A DNA stretch of 41,725 nucleotides from an uncultured Candidatus Saccharibacteria bacterium (GTDB taxonomy: Bacteria > Patescibacteriota > Minisyncoccia > Minisyncoccales > JANBVM01). Location of the stretch: NCBI GenBank assembly GCA_964548875.1, contig CAZJSP010000001.1:1-41725 (forward strand), in the 5' to 3' direction. The notes beneath the pieces were generated by a model. The model searched no databases. It had not been told where the DNA came from and saw nothing but the letters and a program-made list of their open reading frames with translations. Below, piece by piece: positions 13,275 through 21,174 of this stretch (position 1 is its first letter; each line of letters begins with the position of its first letter). Position numbers and translations under genes: made by a program.

Positions 13275-13727
13275 ATGCCTATTTATAGTAAAAATAAAAA
13301 AGCTTATCATAACTATTTTGTCCTCGAAGAATTCGAGGCGGGTATTTCTTTGTTTGGTCATGAAGTAAAGGCAATTAAAAATCATAGAATTAGCATTAAA
13401 GGATCTTATGTCAGCATTAAAAACGGAGAAGCCTATTTAATTGGAGCAACAATTCCTCCCTATCAACCTAAAAATACTCCCCGTAATTACAATGAAAAAA
13501 GAGAAAGAAAATTACTTCTAAAGAAAAGGGAGATACAATATTTGGCCAGTAAAATAGAAAAGAAAGGGTTGACAATAGCCCCTTTAAAGGTCTATAGTGT
13601 AGAAGGAAAAGTTAAGATTAAAATTGGATTAGTAAAGGGAAAAAGGAAATTTGACAAAAAAGCTAAAATAAAGAAAGAAGAAACAGAAAGAGCAATGAAA
13701 AGACAAATGAAAGCATTTAATAAGTAA
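13275..13727 (+). CDS. smpB: SsrA-binding protein SmpB
   Basis: 150 aa. It has the typical N-terminus (NKKAYHNYFVLEEFEAGISLFGHEVKAIK) and a basic C-terminal tail, and tmRNA follows 9 nt downstream. Confidence 0.9.
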   Translation: MPIYSKNKKAYHNYFVLEEFEAGISLFGHEVKAIKNHRISIKGSYVSIKNGEAYLIGATIPPYQPKNTPRNYNEKRERKLLLKKREIQYLASKIEKKGLTIAPLKVYSVEGKVKIKIGLVKGKRKFDKKAKIKKEETERAMKRQMKAFNK

Positions 13728-13736
13728 GTTGTCTTT

Positions 13737-14087
13737 GGGGATGCAATTAAGCTTCGACAAAGATTTAACTGGAATAAGGCAAGTCGAGTATTCTCTAATC
13801 TCGTAAAACTTGGAGAAACACAAATAATTGCTAAAAATAAATTATTTGAACCCGCATTGGCTTTAGCCTAATGCCGCTTATCCTATTGATTCTCGATAAA
13901 TAGGAATAGGCGTCATACATCGAGATAGATTTTTCGCTTGGTTTGATGAAAAATTGAAATAATAAAACCACAATATAGAAAGATTTTGCTCAATTTTACT
14001 TTCTATTATTACCCAATTGAGCTATACTTGTAGAATTGTTTTAGATTAAATTTTTGGACAAGGGGGCAGAACCCTTCATCTCCACCA
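13737..14087 (+). ncRNA. ssrA: tmRNA (SsrA), about 351 nt
   Basis: The 5' end GGGGATGCAATTAAGCTTCGAC pairs with the 3' end ...CATCTCCACCA. The acceptor stem is GGGGATG/CATCTCC with the G3:U wobble that specifies alanine, followed by a terminal CCA. A T-arm-like GGACAAGGGGGCAGAACCCTT is present. The tag reading frame GCT AAA AAT AAA TTA TTT GAA CCC GCA TTG GCT TTA GCC TAA (13830..13871) encodes AKNKLFEPALALA, and the stop codon sits in a helix (GCATTGGC/GCCTAATGC). Confidence 0.85.
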
Positions 14088-14804: not shown

Positions 14805-15164
14805 ATGACAAGAGTAAAAGGAAGTTCAACCACAAAAAAAAGAAAGAAAAAGGTAATTAAGCAGGCAAAGGGTTATAAGTGGGGTAGAAATTCTAAATTC
14901 AAATTAGCGAAAGATGCCTTACGCCATGCCTGGACTCATGCCTTCCAAGACCGAAGAAAAAAGAAAAGAAAATTTAGAGCTGCCTGGCAAGTCCAGATTA
15001 ATGCTGCCTCTAGAAAACACGGTCTTTCCTACAGCAAACTTATTCACGGACTAAAAAAGAGTAAAATAGAAATCAATAGAAAAATGCTAGCCGAGCTAGC
15101 AATTAATCATCCTGAAATATTCCAGGAAATAGTAGAAAAGGCAAAAACAAGCCTTAAAGCTTAA
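14805..15164 (+). CDS. rplT: 50S ribosomal protein L20
   Basis: 119 aa containing KGYKWGRNSKFKLAKDALRHAWTHAFQDRRKKKRKFRAAWQVQINAA, which is typical of L20. Confidence 0.95.
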   Translation: MTRVKGSSTTKKRKKKVIKQAKGYKWGRNSKFKLAKDALRHAWTHAFQDRRKKKRKFRAAWQVQINAASRKHGLSYSKLIHGLKKSKIEINRKMLAELAINHPEIFQEIVEKAKTSLKA

Positions 15165-15570
15165 GAAATTCATGAGCTTTTTTTAAAACCTTTTTTGTTT
15201 GATCAAAGGTTATTTTTTCTATAGCCTGATGATAAGAAAGCCATCTAAAATCTCTATGCTCCTCAGAAAGATGAATTTCATCTTTTTTTGTTTTGGCTAA
15301 AAGAATATGGTTAATTTTAAATATTTTTTTCCCATCTCTTTCAAAAAAATATTCTGTTTTTTCTTTAAAGCCATCAATAAACTTTAAATCACTTATTCCT
15401 GTTTCTTCCCCGGTTTCTCTTATAATTGTTTTCTTAAAGGTTTCCCCTCCTTCAATATGGCCTTTCACTAGCCCCCAATGACCAGCATTGTAATGTAAGA
15501 TAAGGTAATAAATATTACTCTCTTCTTTTTTAAAAATAATTGCTCCTGCTGAACTTTCAATCGGTATCAT
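15154..15570 (-). CDS. Nudix hydrolase (Ap4A-hydrolase-like, short form)
   Basis: 138 aa with a canonical Nudix box, GHIEGGETFKKTIIRETGEETGI (G-x5-E-x7-REUxEExGU). The 3' end overlaps the rplT 3' end by 11 nt in convergent orientation. Confidence 0.85.
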   Translation of the reverse strand: MIPIESSAGAIIFKKEESNIYYLILHYNAGHWGLVKGHIEGGETFKKTIIRETGEETGISDLKFIDGFKEKTEYFFERDGKKIFKINHILLAKTKKDEIHLSEEHRDFRWLSYHQAIEKITFDQTKKVLKKAHEFLKL

Positions 15571-16543
15571 AAAAATATTTCTTTAAAAAAGAACCTCCTA
15601 TTCTGAAAAACAAAACAAAACCCAATAAGGAAATTAAAACTCCTGCCCCTCTTAAAAGCATTGCAAAAGCAACAGCGGAAGACGATTTTAATCCCAAAGA
15701 ACTAAAAACAAAAATTTGAATTGCTTCATGAGTCCCCAAACTAGCGGGCAAAGGAATAACAACGATTAAATAGGTAAACCCTAAAATAAAGAGGGCAGCT
15801 AAAAAAGAAATTTTAATCTCCAAGAAGAACATTAAAAGCCAAATTGTTATGACCATAATTAAGTCTTTTACCGCCGAGATTAAAAAAGGTTTTATCATTT
15901 TTCTTCCAGGCAAATTAAAAAAACCAAAAACATCTTTTTCTATTTCTTGGGAGGCAACTCTCATGTCACTGTTAAGAAATCGATAAAAAATTCTAACAAT
16001 ACTGCTCTTGTTAAAAACCTTAAAGTAAAAAACAGCCAAACAAATAGTAAAGAATCCAAAGAACCAACTAATATTAATTAATAAGTCATGGGGAATAGCG
16101 TTGGTTTGATAAAAAAACAAGAAAACACTTACCACAATAATAATAATATTAACTGTCCAACCAACAATTCTATCAATTACAATTGATGAACTAATTTTAG
16201 TAACTAAATAATCTTTTTTTCTTTTTAAAAAATAACCCCTAAAAAACTCAGTTAAACCAAATAAGGCGGGAAAAAGAAAATTAATAGCAAAAGCAATAAT
16301 TCCAAGCTGAGAACTATCTTTAAAAGATATCTTCTTTTTTTGAGTTTTTAAAATTTCTTTCCATCTATAACCCTCTAAAATAGGAACCAATAAGTAAATC
16401 AAGAAAAGAGTAGCAATCTGCCAGACATGAATAGCGGAAAAAATAGATTGAATTTCTTCCCAACCAACAGTTTGAATAATCCAAGAAAAAATGACCCCTC
16501 CAAAAATAAAAGATAAAACTAATAATAGAAATTTCTTTATCAT
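15557..16543 (-). CDS. Flippase-like membrane protein (lysyl-phosphatidylglycerol synthase TM-region / UPF0104 family)
   Basis: 328 aa with about 8 predicted TM helices. The N-terminal pattern (...W..I.......W...LL...) and overall topology resemble LPG_synthase_TM family proteins. The family call is tentative. Confidence 0.55.
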   Translation of the reverse strand: MIKKFLLLVLSFIFGGVIFSWIIQTVGWEEIQSIFSAIHVWQIATLFLIYLLVPILEGYRWKEILKTQKKKISFKDSSQLGIIAFAINFLFPALFGLTEFFRGYFLKRKKDYLVTKISSSIVIDRIVGWTVNIIIIVVSVFLFFYQTNAIPHDLLINISWFFGFFTICLAVFYFKVFNKSSIVRIFYRFLNSDMRVASQEIEKDVFGFFNLPGRKMIKPFLISAVKDLIMVITIWLLMFFLEIKISFLAALFILGFTYLIVVIPLPASLGTHEAIQIFVFSSLGLKSSSAVAFAMLLRGAGVLISLLGFVLFFRIGGSFLKKYFYDTD

Positions 16544-16549
16544 AAAAGT

Positions 16550-17560
16550 TTAAATTATCTTAACACCCTCTACTCCAATATTACCAATCAACGAATTATA
16601 ACCTTTTTTTAAAAAAATTTCTTGCATCCTCTTCAACTCCTCTTCTTTAGTTAAAACCAAACAACATCCTCCTCCCCATCCTCCTGTTGGTTTTGCTCCT
16701 AAAGCTCTATTATCCAAGGCAATTTCTATGATTTCATCAAGCTTGTCTGTAGAAAGATCAAGTTTGCTAAGCTCCCAATAATATTTATTCATTAATTTTC
16801 CCAACTCAATAAACTTCTTATTCCTTAATTCATTTAAGGCTCTTTTAGATAAATCATCTAAATTATCTAAAACAAAATTAACGGTCTGAGCAAATTTCTT
16901 CTTTTTTTCTCTTAAATAAGAAACCATTTCCCCTGTCTGGGCATCTTCACCACTATCAACAATTAAAAGAGGAATGCGAAAATCAATATCTAAAATTTTA
17001 ATGCCTTTTGATTTTTGATATTGCAAATATCCTCCGTAAGTCACAATGTTATTATCTATTCCTGAGGGAGTTCCACCATGAGCAATAATATCTCCCAAAT
17101 AAGCGAAATTAGAAATTTGATCTTTAGATAACCCTTTTTCAAGAGCCGTTGTTACGGATAGAGCCAGAGAAGCAAAAACCGCAGAACTAGAACCTAAGTT
17201 TTTAGGGATTTCTGATTCAATTTCAATTTTTAGTCCCTGAAAACCATATTTATTTAAAATACTAGCAACAACAAAAAAACTAGGAGCAAGAAAATTATCC
17301 TTACTTAACTTGTTAATGCTATTAAAATCATCTTTTTTAATAAAACCCCTTATTTCTTTTAAAAATAAAAACAAATCTTCCTGATCAAAAGATTTGTGAA
17401 TCTTTAAACTATTACAGCCAATACTAATATGGTCTTCATCAGTTAAAGAAGTTCGAACCCTACATCTTTTATCGAAAGTGCAAGCAATTCCTAGTTTATC
17501 ATAAACAACAGCATGCTCGCCAAATAAAATGACTTTACCAGGAGCAGAAGCGGTAACCAT
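16550..17560 (-). CDS. mvk: Mevalonate kinase (GHMP kinase family)
   Basis: 336 aa. It has the N-terminal APGKVILFGEHAVVY, GHMP motif II (PKNLGSSSAVFASLA) and the C-terminal KPTGGWGGGC. Confidence 0.8.
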   Translation of the reverse strand: MVTASAPGKVILFGEHAVVYDKLGIACTFDKRCRVRTSLTDEDHISIGCNSLKIHKSFDQEDLFLFLKEIRGFIKKDDFNSINKLSKDNFLAPSFFVVASILNKYGFQGLKIEIESEIPKNLGSSSAVFASLALSVTTALEKGLSKDQISNFAYLGDIIAHGGTPSGIDNNIVTYGGYLQYQKSKGIKILDIDFRIPLLIVDSGEDAQTGEMVSYLREKKKKFAQTVNFVLDNLDDLSKRALNELRNKKFIELGKLMNKYYWELSKLDLSTDKLDEIIEIALDNRALGAKPTGGWGGGCCLVLTKEEELKRMQEIFLKKGYNSLIGNIGVEGVKII

Positions 17561-17570
17561 TTGGATTTAT

Positions 17571-17825
17571 TTAGATTTTATAAATCTTATAGCCCTCTCT
17601 TACCTTTTGCTCAAACTTCAAACCAACTGCATCTCCTTTCTTCGCTTTTTCAATCTTCTCTTTATCTTGTTCCATTGATTCAACCACTTGATCAAATTCT
17701 TTCTCTCCTCCTATTATTCTAATCTTATCTCCCACTTTTAATTTATCAAACAACTTAATAACTCCTACTTTTAAGTTGCCATAAAAATGGGTTACTTCTC
17801 CTATTTTTTTACCTTGTTTAGGCAT
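17571..17825 (-). CDS. Small EF-Tu-domain-2-like beta-barrel protein
   Basis: 84 aa. The pattern IGEVTHFYGNLKVGVIKL...LKVGDKIRIIG...KGDAVGLKF resembles stand-alone translation-factor domain II barrels. It is the first gene of the mevalonate-kinase operon. Confidence 0.5.
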   Translation of the reverse strand: MPKQGKKIGEVTHFYGNLKVGVIKLFDKLKVGDKIRIIGGEKEFDQVVESMEQDKEKIEKAKKGDAVGLKFEQKVREGYKIYKI

Positions 17826-17880
17826 AAAATGAAAATTAATTAATATTAGTTATATTTTAATATTTAGAGACAGAAAATCA

Positions 17881-17920
17881 AATAAAAAACTAAAAGACAG
17901 GAAGTAAAACGTCCTGTCTT
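17881..17920 (-). terminator. Rho-independent terminator (possible attenuator) upstream of the mvk operon
   Basis: On the minus strand: AAGACAGGA-CGUUUUACU-UCCUGUCUU (9 bp), followed by UUAGUUUUUUAUUU. Confidence 0.65.
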
Positions 17921-18044
17921 AAAGCGAGAAAGAGATAATTCTCACAAAATTGACATAAGTTCGAATTCATTTCTGAAGAATTCCTTATCTCTCCTTTGCT
18001 CAAATTATCCTGTTAACAGAAAAAATTCTGCACCCTCTCAATGC
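17921..18044 (-). ncRNA. Candidate structured leader RNA or small RNA of unknown class
   Basis: The element is bounded by a perfect promoter (18050..18078) and the terminator (17881..17920). It contains a 5' hairpin, CAGAA-UUUU-UUCUG (18017..18030). It also contains a long imperfect stem in which 17977..18001 pairs with 17922..17942 (about 18 bp); two of those pairs are G.U and form only on the minus strand. There is no ORF of 60 aa or more. Confidence 0.45.
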
Positions 18045-18049
18045 TCTTA

Positions 18050-18078
18050 ATTATACACGAAATAAATATTTTTGTCAA
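18050..18078 (-). promoter_or_regulatory. Consensus sigma70-type promoter
   Basis: On the minus strand: TTGACA (18078..18073), exactly 17 nt (AAAATATTTATTTCGTG), then TATAAT (18055..18050). It lies 12 nt downstream of the Trm9-like stop codon. The predicted TSS is about 18042..18044. Confidence 0.65.
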
Positions 18079-18090
18079 AAAAACAAATTG

Positions 18091-18786
18091 TTATTTCTTT
18101 TGGGCTATGATATAAAGATTTTGACGGCTCTTGTCATCACTTTCAACAATCCCCTCTTTAACTACTTTAAAGCCGGCTTTTTTGACTAATTTCCTTAATT
18201 CTTTTTGAGAAAAGAAGTGATAATAGCGATCTACCTTGTCGCCCCAAGGAACAAGGATGTCTCTATAATCTAGCTTTGTCTTTCCTAAAATTTTTAAAAA
18301 TAAATTTTTAATGATAGAAATAATGTGCTCAATTTTATAAAGTTTCCAAACTGTTAAAATCAATAATCCCTTAGGCCTTAAAACTCTTTTAGCCTCGTTT
18401 AAAAATTGCAATCTTAAATCTTTAGATGGAATTTGATGTAAAACAGCTATACTATAAACCTTATCAAAAAAACGATCTTTAAAAGATAAATTTAAAGCAT
18501 TATCTACTCTAAAGTTTTTTTGAGGGTATTTTTTCCTAGCTTCTTTAATTAATTCAACTGAGATATCAGCCCCATAATAATCAGCCAGTTTCTCATCAAA
18601 ATATATTATATTACGACCATTACCACATCCTAAATCTAATACTCTGTCTCCTGCAAACAAATAATCACTAAACAAAAACCTAATTTCATACCAAGGATTA
18701 CTCCTGGTTCTAGAAAAATCTTTTGCAATTAAATCGTAATTACGATTAACTCTGTCTAATAAATATTTTGCGTATTCTTTATCCAT
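18091..18786 (-). CDS. Class I SAM-dependent methyltransferase, Trm9/ALKBH8-MT-like (putative tRNA cm5U34 methyltransferase)
   Basis: 231 aa. Its motifs are FSRTRSNPW, VLDLGCGNGRN (SAM motif I), SIAVLHQIPS, ILVPWG and RYYHFFSQKELRKLVKKAGF. These parallel yeast Trm9 as I recall it (FSQTRYKPW, DVGCGNGKY, SIAVVHH, VFVPW, RYYHLYREGEL..AG). It is divergently adjacent to Elp3. Confidence 0.7.
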   Translation of the reverse strand: MDKEYAKYLLDRVNRNYDLIAKDFSRTRSNPWYEIRFLFSDYLFAGDRVLDLGCGNGRNIIYFDEKLADYYGADISVELIKEARKKYPQKNFRVDNALNLSFKDRFFDKVYSIAVLHQIPSKDLRLQFLNEAKRVLRPKGLLILTVWKLYKIEHIISIIKNLFLKILGKTKLDYRDILVPWGDKVDRYYHFFSQKELRKLVKKAGFKVVKEGIVESDDKSRQNLYIIAQKK

Positions 18787-20368
18787 GAAACATAAAAAAC
18801 AAATAATTCAAAGTCTAATCCAAAGCGAAATTAAAAATTCGCAAGATTTAGATTCTTTTAAGCGAAAAATAGCTAAAAAATATAAAATAAAACTATTTAC
18901 AAACGTTCAGCTACTTAAAGCCTATCATAAACTATTAAACAATAGGGAAATTCAAAAGTCAAGGAAGATAGAAGGCCTTCTAAAAACAAGCCCTGTTCGT
19001 TCTTTATCTGGAATAGTTAATGTTTCAGTCTTAACAAAAGAATATGAATGCCCCGGAAAATGTATTTATTGCCCTAAAGAAGAAGGGCTTCCAAAAAGCT
19101 ATCTATCGGGAGAACCAGCAGTAGAAAGAGCAAAATCTCTAGATTATGATCCTTACAAACAAACAAAAGAAAGAATTATAATGTTAAAAGAACAGGGGCA
19201 TCCAGTCGACAAAATAGATTTAAGAATTATAGGAGAAACATGGTCTCACTACCCAAAAAAATATCAAACTTGGTTTATTAAAGAATGTTTTAATGCTTGC
19301 AATAAAAAGAAAAGCAAAACCTTAAAAGAAGCTCAAAAAAGAAATGAAAAAGCAGAAAACAGAATTGTTGGGCTTTCGATTGAAACAAGGCCTGATTTTA
19401 TTGATAAAAAAGAAATTAAAAGATTAAGAAGATTAGGGGTAACTAAAGTAGAAATAGGAGTTCAAAGCATTAATGATAGAATTCTTCGTTTAAATAAAAG
19501 AGGGCATAAGGTCAAAGCGACTATTCAAGCTACAAAATTATTAAAAGATGCTGGATTTAAGGTCTCCTACCAAATCATGCCTAATTTATTTGGCTCAACC
19601 CCTAAAAAAGATTTAAAACAATTTAAAGAAATATTCCATAACCCTAATTTTCAACCTGATTTTATTAAAATATATCCCTGTGCCCTACTAGAATCAACTC
19701 CTCTGTTTAAATTGTATAAAGAAAAGAAATATAAACCTTATTCTAAAAAAGAGCTAATTGATTTAATTAAAAATATTAAAAAAATAACTCCTTTCTATAT
19801 CAGAATAGTAAGAATTATTAGAGATATCCCTGCCCAACAAATTATAGCTGGTCCAGCTAAAATATCTAACTTAAGACAAATTATTCAAAAAGAAATGGAA
19901 GAAGAAGGTTGGCAATGTCGATGCATCAGATGTAGAGAAGTTAAAGATCAATTTAAAAAAGAAGAAAAACCTTTCTTTTTTAGAGAAGATTATGACTCTT
20001 CAGAAGGAAAAGAGATATTCTTAACTTTCGAAAACAAAACAAGAAGCAAACTTTATAGTATTTTAAGATTAAGGATTCCTTCTTATTCTTTAAAGAAAGA
20101 AAAACATTTTTTAAAAACCTTAAACAATAGTTCTATTATTCGAGAACTGCATACTTATGGACAACTCACTCCAATTTCCAAGAAAGGAAAATCTTCTCAA
20201 CACAAAGGATTAGGTAAAAAGCTCATTAAGAAGGCTGAAAAAATCACTCAAAAAGAATTCCATCTTGATAAAATAGCAATAATATCAGGTATTGGAGTCC
20301 GCCAGTATTATCGCAAAATAGGATATAAATTAGACGACACCTACATGGTTAAAAAAATAACCAAATAA
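18785..20368 (+). CDS. elp3: Elp3-family radical SAM / lysine-acetyltransferase-fold protein (tRNA uridine-34 carboxymethyl synthase homolog)
   Basis: 527 aa. Elp3 hallmarks are present: SPVRSLSGIVNVSVLT, the Fe-S cluster motif CPGKCIYCP, LPKSYLSGEPAVERA, YDPYKQ and GHPVDKIDLRIIGETWS. The C-terminal GNAT/KAT domain carries RELHTYGQ...QHKGLGKKLIKKAE...ISGIGVRQYYRKIGY. Confidence 0.85.
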   Translation: MKHKKQIIQSLIQSEIKNSQDLDSFKRKIAKKYKIKLFTNVQLLKAYHKLLNNREIQKSRKIEGLLKTSPVRSLSGIVNVSVLTKEYECPGKCIYCPKEEGLPKSYLSGEPAVERAKSLDYDPYKQTKERIIMLKEQGHPVDKIDLRIIGETWSHYPKKYQTWFIKECFNACNKKKSKTLKEAQKRNEKAENRIVGLSIETRPDFIDKKEIKRLRRLGVTKVEIGVQSINDRILRLNKRGHKVKATIQATKLLKDAGFKVSYQIMPNLFGSTPKKDLKQFKEIFHNPNFQPDFIKIYPCALLESTPLFKLYKEKKYKPYSKKELIDLIKNIKKITPFYIRIVRIIRDIPAQQIIAGPAKISNLRQIIQKEMEEEGWQCRCIRCREVKDQFKKEEKPFFFREDYDSSEGKEIFLTFENKTRSKLYSILRLRIPSYSLKKEKHFLKTLNNSSIIRELHTYGQLTPISKKGKSSQHKGLGKKLIKKAEKITQKEFHLDKIAIISGIGVRQYYRKIGYKLDDTYMVKKITK

Positions 20369-21174
20369 CCAATAATAGAGAAAAGGGCAATAGGAGGAAG
20401 AGCTGGAATAGCTCTTTTTTCTTTTTGAAGAACAAAAATAAAAAAACTGAATAAAATCCCTAAGAAAGAAAATGTCATTACAAAAAGAGACCCTCTTAAT
20501 CCATAAGGAATTAAAGAACAAATTAACAGAAGAGGAAAGGCTATATCTCCTCCTCCAAAAACAAAGGCCCAACCCTTACTAAAATTGCTTGCTTTTCTTT
20601 TAAAATCATCGAAACGATAAGGAATAATAAACCCTAGAATAGAGCCAGTTTCTATCATCGATTCGGCCATTTTAACCATGTGCTTAGTTTTGTAAACTGC
20701 AATAAAATCATAAACAGAAAACAAAACAAGAAGAAGAAGAACTTGGTAAGGAGTAAAATTAAAAGCAGAAAAGCTTACTACTCCTCCTAGCCCCAACACC
20801 ATACATAAATTATGAATGATGATATTTTTAGTTTTTTTCCAAACTAAAATTAAAAGAGCTATTACTATGAAAGAGTATAAATCAGGCAACCAGAGATTTA
20901 AAACAGAAAACCCCCCTAAAAAAACAGGCAAAATAAATAAAAAATCAAAAACATATCTTTTCTTTTTCCCCTTTTTAAAAAATTTAACTAATAAAAGAAT
21001 TAATACTGTTAAAATCAAAAATTGGACTAAAAAACTCTCAATAGAAATAGGGGCTACTACAGGCCTTTGAGATACCTCTAATCTTTTTAATGTCCCAGTA
21101 ATCCCTATAAAAGCAGTTAAAAAGAATAAAAAAGACTTAAAACAAAAAACCTGAATAATGTTTTTTTTATTCAT
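20341..21174 (-). CDS. Presenilin/signal-peptide-peptidase-like intramembrane aspartyl protease (A22 family, archaeal PSH-like)
   Basis: 277 aa and polytopic. All three family signatures occur in the expected order: YD (LFSVYDFIAVYKTKHMVKMAE), GxGD (FVFGGGDIAFPLLL) and PAL (RAIPALPPIAL). Confidence 0.7.
   Translation of the reverse strand: MNKKNIIQVFCFKSFLFFLTAFIGITGTLKRLEVSQRPVVAPISIESFLVQFLILTVLILLLVKFFKKGKKKRYVFDFLFILPVFLGGFSVLNLWLPDLYSFIVIALLILVWKKTKNIIIHNLCMVLGLGGVVSFSAFNFTPYQVLLLLVLFSVYDFIAVYKTKHMVKMAESMIETGSILGFIIPYRFDDFKRKASNFSKGWAFVFGGGDIAFPLLLICSLIPYGLRGSLFVMTFSFLGILFSFFIFVLQKEKRAIPALPPIALFSIIGYLVIFLTM

Follow-up and report, generated by a model that had tools for sequence, protein, structure and literature searches.

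The locus and its predicted promoter and terminator

The stretch of DNA analysed here (the window) comprises positions 1 to 41,725 of contig CAZJSP010000001.1 (GenBank assembly GCA_964548875.1), deposited as an uncultured Candidatus Saccharibacteria bacterium and placed in the Minisyncoccales (Patescibacteriota) by GTDB. It has about 30% G+C and its genes are tightly packed. We examined the spacer between a Trm9-like class-I methyltransferase gene (18091-18786, minus strand) and a gene for an 84-aa protein on the same strand. This spacer had previously been predicted, from its sequence, to encode either a structured leader of the downstream operon or a small RNA (sRNA). The following elements were located:

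18073..18078, minus strand: −35 box TTGACA of the RNA gene, near-invariant at the same position in 114 homologous copies
18050..18055, minus strand: −10 box TATAAT, 17 nt past the −35 box
17885..18043, minus strand: predicted structured-RNA transcript of about 155-160 nt, its 5′ end placed from the −10 box and its 3′ end from the U tract
17885..17920, minus strand: intrinsic terminator, with a stem at 17920-17894 and then a U tract
17571..17825, minus strand: 84-aa gene, encoding a beta-barrel like EF-Tu domain II and the U32 C-terminal domain

The combination of TTGACA, 17 nt and TATAAT is the sole 12/12 match to a sigma-70 promoter between 10 and 26 kb of the window (16 kb scanned), and its −35 box begins 12 nt past the stop codon of the methyltransferase gene. 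Both the promoter and this spacing are as given in the original prediction, which also assigned the element to the correct strand. The terminator that it described was likewise found; its 9-bp stem (AAGACAGGA/UCCUGUCUU, 17920-17912 paired with 17902-17894) is followed by a U tract and begins about 123 nt past the expected start site. A terminator scan tool had overlooked it solely owing to the 9-nt loop. The 176-nt region has a folding energy of −52.9 kcal/mol (z = −4.4), which is better than that of 200 out of 200 shuffled sequences.

Homologues and their gene neighbourhood

Homologues of the RNA were found in 122 Parcubacteria/Nealsonbacteria contigs, one per locus. A profile of the 84-aa protein, scanned over one genome per species, gave 80 loci, and an nhmmer profile followed by a covariance model was run on 83 sources, i.e., the window, the related loci L001 and L005 and the 80 loci from the genome scan. 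Exactly one RNA copy was present in 55 of the 83 sources, always upstream of the 84-aa gene and on its strand. The synteny bias of this search was removed by scanning metagenome contigs with a pattern derived from the RNA alone, which gave 80 loci, 67 of them confirmed by the covariance model with one copy each. The remaining 13 pattern matches were not confirmed by this model, gave nothing with model R2 either and were discarded. The window copy itself scores 112.5 bits with model R1 and 92.9 bits with model R2.

Five of the 67 copies found by the pattern lie at contig ends, and all of the other 62 are followed by the 84-aa gene, either directly or with a gene for a SLOG protein in between. 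According to BLASTP, the next gene is SLOG-like and then the 84-aa gene in 37 cases and the 84-aa gene directly in 22; the other three were placed in the SLOG group by a motif search. The upstream neighbour, by comparison, varies (Trm9-like methyltransferase, tRNA, hydrolase and others). Contigs with close homologues of the 84-aa protein keep the order of methyltransferase gene, spacer and 84-aa gene; the promoter, the RNA body and the terminator can all be aligned among their spacers, where compensatory changes are seen. A comparison of related spacers, as the original prediction had suggested, hence found both sequence and structure to be conserved.

No RNA was detected within 2.5 kb at 28 of the 80 protein-anchored loci, about seven of which are cut by contig ends; model R2 gave three matches at E 0.09-1 on these 28 loci, which were not accepted. 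Fourteen RNA-less loci were read directly, and a tRNA gene stands just before the SLOG gene in eight of them and a protein-coding gene in the others. The absence of the RNA at about 21 loci implies that the proteins do not strictly need an adjacent RNA gene.

We compared the RNA with known families, another check suggested with the original prediction, and no known family, related or unrelated, was found to match. At gathering scores, Rfam 15 recognised only a transfer-messenger RNA (tmRNA) in the window. Nothing credible appeared in the window region at E ≤ 10, with relaxed searches of the window and its homologues giving chance-level matches only (rli61, the PyrG leader and a miRNA), and none of 4227 Rfam models matched the RNA in five canonical copies at E ≤ 1. 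The best sub-threshold match, Listeria rli61 (RF01485, 27.8 bits), aligns a hairpin and a terminator-like hairpin; it was rejected as a chance match, being far below the gathering score of 50, consisting mostly of the terminator hairpin, ignoring helices P1-P3 (see below) and being absent from canonical copies. A phage-borne RNA like GOLLD or ROOL was also dropped, since the RNA pattern had 0 matches in viral contigs. Literature searches on RNA motifs of Parcubacteria/Patescibacteria found no description of the RNA, and those on LDcluster4/TIGR00725 found no description of the SLOG family. In summary, the RNA belongs to a previously undescribed family of structured non-coding RNA (ncRNA) of Parcubacteria (Nealsonbacteria, Minisyncoccales, Paceibacteria), which are tiny groundwater bacteria.

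As to the names of the sources, many of the related records (L007-L086) bear the title 'uncultured Candidatus Saccharibacteria'; in gene content and neighbours they agree with Nealsonbacteria/Parcubacteria records, so that the titles look generic and not like real taxonomy. The relatives of the window proteins are annotated as Nealsonbacteria, Parcubacteria or Minisyncoccales.

Fold and covariation

A structure-blind MAFFT alignment of 16 copies gave a consensus with compensatory changes in 28 of 36 pairs. A long helix identified by a column-pair scan was added, the model was rebuilt and 100 non-redundant copies were aligned; the values that follow refer to these copies. Standard pairs fill 94.4% of the cells, compared to 42-55% when the partners are slid by 1-3 columns, and compensatory changes affecting both sides were observed in 45 of 50 pairs. 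None of the observed measures was reached by any of 500 shuffles.

In the fold shared by the family, a helix of 7-8 bp (P1) closes the ends and is followed by a U, then by a G or an A, and then by hairpin P2. The junction AAGGAC leads into a near-continuous helix of about 15-17 bp (P3/P4), an internal loop with GGA opposite (A/G)A(N), and helix P5, beyond which lie, in most members, a large internal loop, a helix of 3-4 bp (P6) and an 11-nt loop. P1, P2 and the long arm (P3/P4, the G/A internal loop and P5) form a three-way junction. The corresponding elements of the window copy are as follows:

18033..18039, minus strand: 5′ strand of P1, GAGAGGG, pairing with 17926-17932
17926..17932, minus strand: 3′ strand of P1, CUUUCUC, helix 1 of the covariation fold
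18016..18031, minus strand: hairpin P2, GCAGAA UUUU UUCUGU, 99.8% paired, with up to five pair types per position
18011..18015, minus strand: junction J2/3, UAACA; AAGGAC in most homologues, where it is paired with the apical loop
17995..18010, minus strand: 5′ strand of the long helix P3/P4, pairing with 17933-17949
17933..17949, minus strand: 3′ strand of P3/P4, continuing straight into the 3′ strand of P1
17991..17994, minus strand: GGAG, with the highest conservation in the family; its GGA forms the internal loop and its last G opens P5
17949..17951, minus strand: AAU, the opposite strand of the G/A internal loop, with A17950 in 100/100 copies
17984..17991, minus strand: 5′ strand of P5, pairing with 17952-17959
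17952..17959, minus strand: 3′ strand of P5, supported by changes in the window lineage and by family covariation

All seven pairs of P1 are 100% paired and all show compensatory changes, and P3/P4 has 15 pairs, 14 of them with compensatory changes, and is 90.5% paired. P5 is 91% paired in the family; within the window lineage, a G/G mismatch is replaced by C-G or U-A, and a U-A pair by C-G. The GGAG is 97-100% identical and faces the invariant A17950, and the same range (97-100%) holds family-wide for the G, G, A and next G together with the opposite A. We infer a sheared G-A geometry for this loop. A kink-turn at the GGA loop was considered and rejected, as the flanking A-U pairs covary and hence leave no 3-nt bulge. 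The GUCC in the P6 loop is complementary to the GGAC of the junction in 99.5% of cells, with the variants GGGC/GCCC, GGCC/GGCC and GGAU/AUCC. Finally, the extended terminator hairpin follows 0-4 nt past P1 in the aligned copies; its helix is 93% paired and has compensatory changes in 12 of 13 pairs, with a sequence that varies freely among the homologues.

These results bear on the structures drawn in the original prediction. Its 5′ hairpin (18017..18030) is real; it corresponds to P2 (18031-18016) and covaries in relatives. Its second stem, of about 18 bp (17977-18001 with 17922-17942), can form in the window sequence alone (−14.1 kcal/mol); across the homologues it pairs in 59% of cells, which is the level of the slid controls, and it is mutually exclusive with the supported P1, P3 and P5. 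The AAGGAG string that had been noted as resembling a Shine-Dalgarno sequence is present, but it falls within the RNA fold, in the invariant GGAG loop and its helix, rather than serving a conserved open reading frame (ORF).

Evidence for a stand-alone gene

The promoter is a constant feature of the family. In every one of the 114 distinct copies for which the upstream region is long enough, TTGACA is separated by about 17 nt from a −10 box that reads TAAACT, TAATAT or TAAAAT. As the first nucleotides of P1 lie about 7 nt past this box, the transcript is predicted to start at the closing helix.

The layout had nevertheless been read in the first place as a riboswitch or attenuator of a mevalonate-kinase operon, i.e., as a ligand- or protein-sensing leader which would control read-through into the 84-aa or SLOG operon via the terminator. 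Such a leader would account for the constant position of the element upstream of, and co-oriented with, the same genes, for a complex fold in which a three-way junction is combined with loop-junction pairing and invariant unpaired purines, and for the terminator directly after it, whose U tract lies only 19-30 nt from the next start codon in many genomes. Yet no Rfam riboswitch class matches, and P1 (alignment columns 14-20/220-228) shares no columns with the terminator (233-248/327-340), both being kept (100% and 93% paired, respectively). The terminator sequences drift freely and no conserved antiterminator or complementarity to the fold was seen on reading 55 aligned copies, for which no dedicated search for alternative pairings was run. 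An antiterminator formed by ACAGGA in the window junction and the 3′ half of the terminator was rejected, as ACAGGA is absent in L001 and L005.

The downstream genes, furthermore, have predicted promoter elements of their own. An extended −10 element (TGnTAnnnT) lies 6-9 nt before the ATG of the SLOG gene in 46 of 76 copies and at other distances in 13 more, and it keeps its place at upstream distances of the terminator of both 19 and about 120 nt. As it tracks the SLOG start codon and not the terminator, a dedicated promoter and leaderless SLOG mRNAs are predicted. When the 84-aa gene is the first after the RNA, an extended −10 is followed by a conserved AAAGGUCG and then by a further 20-45 nt to the start codon. 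The window lineage has a different site:

17854..17881, minus strand: promoter-like site of the downstream operon, TTGATT/16 nt/TAAAAT, a 9/12 match that would function as its promoter

This site is found in 7 of 7 aligned spacers, with an invariant TTGATTTT box and a −10 that varies at one position (TAAAAT, TAGAAT, TACAAT), and two of these seven spacers have upstream sequence unrelated to the RNA. Read-through from the RNA would leave the leader of the downstream genes without a ribosome-binding site, and the RNA is absent from the approximately 21 otherwise syntenic loci mentioned above. With no Rfam class, a closing helix that coexists with the terminator and promoter-like sites downstream of it, control of the operon by a riboswitch or other attenuator, as put forward in the original prediction, is unlikely.

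Some details of these downstream elements were recorded in passing. The SLOG (LDcluster4) genes start 6-9 nt past TGnTAAAAT at, e.g., L012:1868-1891 and L033:1160-1191 and are probably leaderless, and in some loci the SLOG promoter overlaps the U tract of the RNA terminator. The AAAGGUCG motif, which is sometimes AAAGGUCA, lies about 5-13 nt from the extended −10, and farther in a few loci (e.g., L009:700-710, L032, L052, L071); it is absent from the window lineage.

A leader-peptide attenuator, in which translation of a 26-codon ORF (17970..17890) through the terminator stem would control termination, had been offered as a further mechanism. The ORF does exist in the window and is preceded by AAGGAG. 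However, just 12 of 100 homologues have an ATG in its start columns, the frame is displaced by a 1-nt indel between the window and L001/L005, and the longest closed ATG ORF has fewer than 15 codons in 47 of 100 copies, with ORF lengths varying widely. Substitutions in the region fall at codon positions 1 and 2 and it is the base pairs that are kept instead, while the AAGGAG is accounted for by the invariant loop and helix. We therefore regard this mechanism as exceedingly improbable.

A tRNA-Arg (CCG or CCU) gene lies directly upstream in 47 of 113 loci (e.g., L012:1600-1671 and L018:1601-1672), with 23-79 nt between its end and the model match, which places the RNA in a stable-RNA neighbourhood. 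In loci with this tRNA gene, the −35 box of the RNA nearly abuts the tRNA. We thus considered a highly divergent housekeeping RNA (6S, signal recognition particle (SRP), Y-RNA-like, tRNA-like or minimal RNase P) that has drifted beyond the reach of Rfam models in fast-evolving genomes. The strong consensus promoter, similar to that of the tmRNA gene of the same window, the closing helix that joins the 5′ and 3′ ends, the single copy per locus and the adjoining tRNA gene are all in keeping with such an RNA, as are the contiguous 3′ strands of P1 and P3, which resemble the acceptor/T-arm stack of tRNA-like domains. The Rfam searches argue otherwise, having given no match in the window at E ≤ 10 or in the five canonical copies at E ≤ 1. 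Nor is the fold, in which an arm folds back on a three-way junction and its loop pairs with that junction, the rod with a large central bubble of 6S RNA; no 6S model matched, and neither an SRP GNRA/AGCA motif nor RNase P P4 sequences were seen on reading the consensus. The loci without the RNA would also be odd for an essential molecule, though it could lie elsewhere in those genomes. Ideas of a CsrA sponge, a tRNA-like RNA, SRP or RNase P were set aside, as none fitted in a comparison of consensus motifs. A housekeeping RNA is hence very unlikely.

Taken together, the promoter, the terminator and the fold point to a stand-alone structured RNA gene of a new family, at approximately 18043-17885 on the minus strand, and we hold this with high confidence. 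Of the readings in the original prediction, it is thus the alternative, a discrete sRNA of about 160 nt, which agrees with an element that has its own promoter, terminator and conserved fold.

Self-complementary tracts in the loop beyond P5

The large internal loop beyond P5 carries a self-complementary tract on each strand. In the window copy these are:

17978..17983, minus strand: palindrome 1, GAAUUC, on the 5′ strand of the loop past P5, supported by family covariation
17960..17968, minus strand: palindrome 2 region, UUCGAA at 17965-17960 overlapping a second GAAUUC at 17968-17963

Palindrome 1 lies immediately before P6 and is a perfect Watson-Crick palindrome of at least 8 nt in 70 of 100 copies, compared to 4% of shuffles. 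The palindrome itself differs among the copies, with more than 25 versions at this site (e.g., GCAGCUGC, GGAUAUCC, GCAAUUGC, GGACGUCC, GGAAUUCC, GUAGCUAC and UGCAUGCA). Its four mirror pairs are Watson-Crick in 75-91% of copies in register, against 8-63% in shifted registers, and the central pair, which consists of adjacent nucleotides, covaries (GC 41, AU 22, UA 14, CG 8). Palindrome 2, on the 3′ strand of the same loop, reaches at least 8 nt in 34% of copies, again compared to 4% of shuffles, with ACUUAAGU, GUUUAAAC, CUUUAAAG, CGAAUUCG, GGAAUUCC, GCUCGAGC and AUCGAU as examples. The two palindromes share at most 2-5 complementary bases.

Since adjacent nucleotides cannot pair within one chain and yet covary, intermolecular pairing is predicted. 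The covariation thus tips the balance, if modestly, towards self-association of the RNA into a homodimer or oligomer, and two self-complementary interfaces could give either a closed dimer or an open array.

These tracts also bear on whether the RNA might be a base-pairing sRNA that acts in trans on mRNAs through its conserved unpaired GGAG or AAGGAC, with neither self-association nor a dedicated protein. An independent promoter/terminator unit of sRNA size and conserved single-stranded purine-rich segments would be expected of such an RNA. On the other hand, the whole 126-nt core is constrained by covariation, which is more than a seed-type sRNA needs, and the palindromes change freely while remaining self-complementary, which no fixed mRNA target explains. 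When the sequences were checked by eye, no part of the RNA was seen to be complementary to the AAAGGUCG motif in the leader of the 84-aa gene. We consider a conventional base-pairing sRNA distinctly unlikely.

The neighbouring proteins as possible partners

The SLOG protein encoded downstream in many loci has about 190 aa and matches Pfam LDcluster4 (SLOG cluster 4) at 4e-36, with TIGR00725 below the model cut-off. The 84-aa protein has weak matches in Pfam and at the sequence level. Its AlphaFold model (pLDDT 91.5) is a small beta-barrel, with Foldseek template-modelling scores of 0.87 to the C-terminal domain of U32 peptidase (4he5/4he6), about 0.7-0.78 to EF-Tu and IF2 chains and 0.70 to Pbp11 (7anu). 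In EF-Tu and IF2, this EF-Tu-domain-II-like fold makes contact with RNA, and in vitro binding of tRNA has been described for Pbp11 (PMC9540759). A defence system was considered as another reading of the neighbourhood and dropped, as PADLOC gave weak SLOG-type matches only for the neighbour proteins (ShosA, E = 3e-4).

A strict gene neighbourhood without co-transcription is a known pattern of RNA-protein partners, for example OLE RNA and the Oap proteins. The RNA may accordingly be a partner of the 84-aa EF-Tu-domain-II-like protein and, where present, of the SLOG protein, although we propose this part with real reservation.

In one locus (L035), 3-4 tandem units of about 31 nt (GAATTTGGAATACTGCGTTTCCAAATCCTAC) lie between the end of the RNA (2269) and the start of the 84-aa gene (2486).

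A proposed self-associating RNA acting in trans

As a whole, the data are probably best explained by a trans-acting, self-associating, stand-alone RNA that works with neighbouring small proteins. The RNA would act in trans and not as a leader. Each of the two self-complementary strands of its loop would bind its counterpart in another copy, so that a symmetric homodimer or a larger assembly arises, and the RNA would be the partner or scaffold of the EF-Tu-domain-II-like protein and, where present, of the SLOG protein encoded just downstream. A more specific version is that these RNAs of about 165 nt, confined to ultra-small Parcubacteria, self-assemble into symmetric dimers or larger arrays via the two palindromes of one loop and form a ribonucleoprotein with the barrel and the SLOG protein, which is of nucleotide-binding type, the window version being minimised and having lost the apical domain together with SLOG. 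This version is tentative and, in our judgement, falls somewhat short of an even chance.

Several points weigh against this explanation. All promoters and terminators are predictions from sequence, and all sequences come from metagenome assemblies. The strict co-oriented position before the same genes would also be expected of a cis-regulatory element, and about 21 loci with enough upstream sequence have the tRNA, the SLOG gene and the 84-aa gene with no RNA nearby. Few compensatory changes underlie the loop-junction pairing. Palindrome 2 is weaker than palindrome 1 and has the same sequence (ACUUAAGU) in many copies. In the window itself, the palindromes have 6 nt only and the two GAAUUC tracts can pair within one molecule as a hairpin; hence, the window copy is the one for which dimerisation is least certain. 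Lastly, the likeness of the 84-aa protein to RNA-binding relatives is at the level of the fold only.

Comparison with known RNAs

OLE, GOLLD and ROOL are orphan bacterial ncRNAs that were found by cryo-electron microscopy (cryo-EM) to form RNA-only homo-oligomers (PMC12286853). In the same study, the argument from covariation of adjacent nucleotides for symmetric kissing loops in OLE and GOLLD was confirmed by cryo-EM, and a loop-junction pairing first taken as tertiary proved to be intermolecular (PMC12286853). The family described here is likewise a stand-alone, highly structured ncRNA with adjacent-nucleotide covariation in its loop palindromes, and its own loop-junction pairing could be tertiary or quaternary. 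The partner proteins of OLE are encoded next to the OLE RNA gene. There are also clear differences. The family is 3-5 times smaller, with a core of about 125 nt compared to about 600-800 nt, shares no sequence or structure with these RNAs (no Rfam match) and occurs in a different phylum. Its 8-nt palindromes lie on both strands of one internal loop, in contrast to 2-4 nt in hairpin loops, and, unlike GOLLD and ROOL, it is not associated with phages in our scan of viral contigs.

Palindromic intermolecular pairing is a recognised dimer motif, as in the HYER1 and HYER5 ribozymes and other natural homodimers (PMC12990946), and RNAs of less than 200 nt can form defined oligomers, as for the manA and EGFOA motifs (bioRxiv 10.64898/2026.07.01.735769). 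None of these is homologous to the present family, for which oligomerisation is predicted from sequence only. The raiA motif RNA, an abundant orphan ncRNA of about 200 nt from Firmicutes and Actinobacteria (PMC10861870, PMC12968392), is similar in being a mid-sized, stand-alone and heavily covarying ncRNA with a conserved gene neighbourhood; it differs in phylum and fold, and there is no model match.

In transcriptional riboswitches of the SAM-I type, a fold-back arm pairs with the junction. The family resembles these in having a multi-helix junction, an arm loop paired with the junction, a terminator 3′ of the closing helix and a fixed gene set, but its closing helix and terminator do not compete, promoter-like elements lie downstream and no Rfam riboswitch matches. 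For annotation, the lesson is that a promoter followed in textbook order by a structured region, a terminator and a gene does not always indicate a riboswitch.

The genomes of the Candidate Phyla Radiation (CPR) are tiny and have little room for non-essential parts, and the ncRNAs of this group are almost undescribed. As its strong promoter is perfectly conserved and its fold is heavily constrained, the RNA is probably abundant and important to its CPR hosts. Natural multi-copy RNA assemblies have only just been recognised, mostly in very large RNAs, and the present family offers a small, sequence-diverse and easily synthesised test case with an unusually clear self-pairing signal, i.e., dozens of different 8-nt palindromes at one position. 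It may also give the first clue to the function of two uncharacterised protein families, the LDcluster4/TIGR00725 SLOG proteins and the free-standing barrels like EF-Tu domain II and the U32 C-terminal domain.

The window copy and other genes of the window

Among the 100 aligned copies, the one in the window is the shortest, with 155 nt compared to a median of 166 nt and a core of 114 nt compared to 126 nt. The window, L001, L005 and L011 have neither P6, nor the apical loop, nor the AAGGAC junction motif, and these four also have no SLOG gene at the locus, where most relatives carry one between the RNA and the 84-aa gene. The window RNA is a trimmed variant of the family in which P6 and the loop-junction pairing have been lost, and the local SLOG gene has been lost from its genome.

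The operon on which the original prediction had laid stress follows the terminator as described (84-aa protein, mevalonate kinase, membrane protein, Nudix hydrolase), but mevalonate kinase does not hold as a conserved neighbour. It comes after the 84-aa gene in the window, L001 and L005 and not in L011; as it adjoins the 84-aa gene in the closest relatives only, the operon is specific to this lineage. After the 84-aa gene, positions 15154-17560 of the window (minus strand) encode a GHMP (mevalonate-kinase-like) kinase, an LPG_synthase_TM membrane protein and a Nudix hydrolase, in a genome of Parcubacteria type.

Other genes of the window were noted in the course of this work. The tmRNA gene lies at 13737-14087 on the plus strand (126 bits with Rfam) and was not reported by ARAGORN; its promoter, at 13569-13598 on the same strand, is the second-best promoter match of the region (11/12). 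A presenilin/SPP-family protease gene is found at 20341-21174 (minus strand). A 527-aa ELP3-like protein (18785-20368, plus strand) has radical SAM and Radical_SAM_C domains together with weak GNAT and ELP3_N matches. Its gene is divergent from that of the Trm9-like methyltransferase (18091-18786, minus strand), the two start codons share 2 nt, and the pair recurs in many relatives. This pairing of a bacterial ELP3 with a Trm9-like protein hints at a eukaryote- or archaea-style xcm5U34 modification of the tRNA wobble position in these bacteria.

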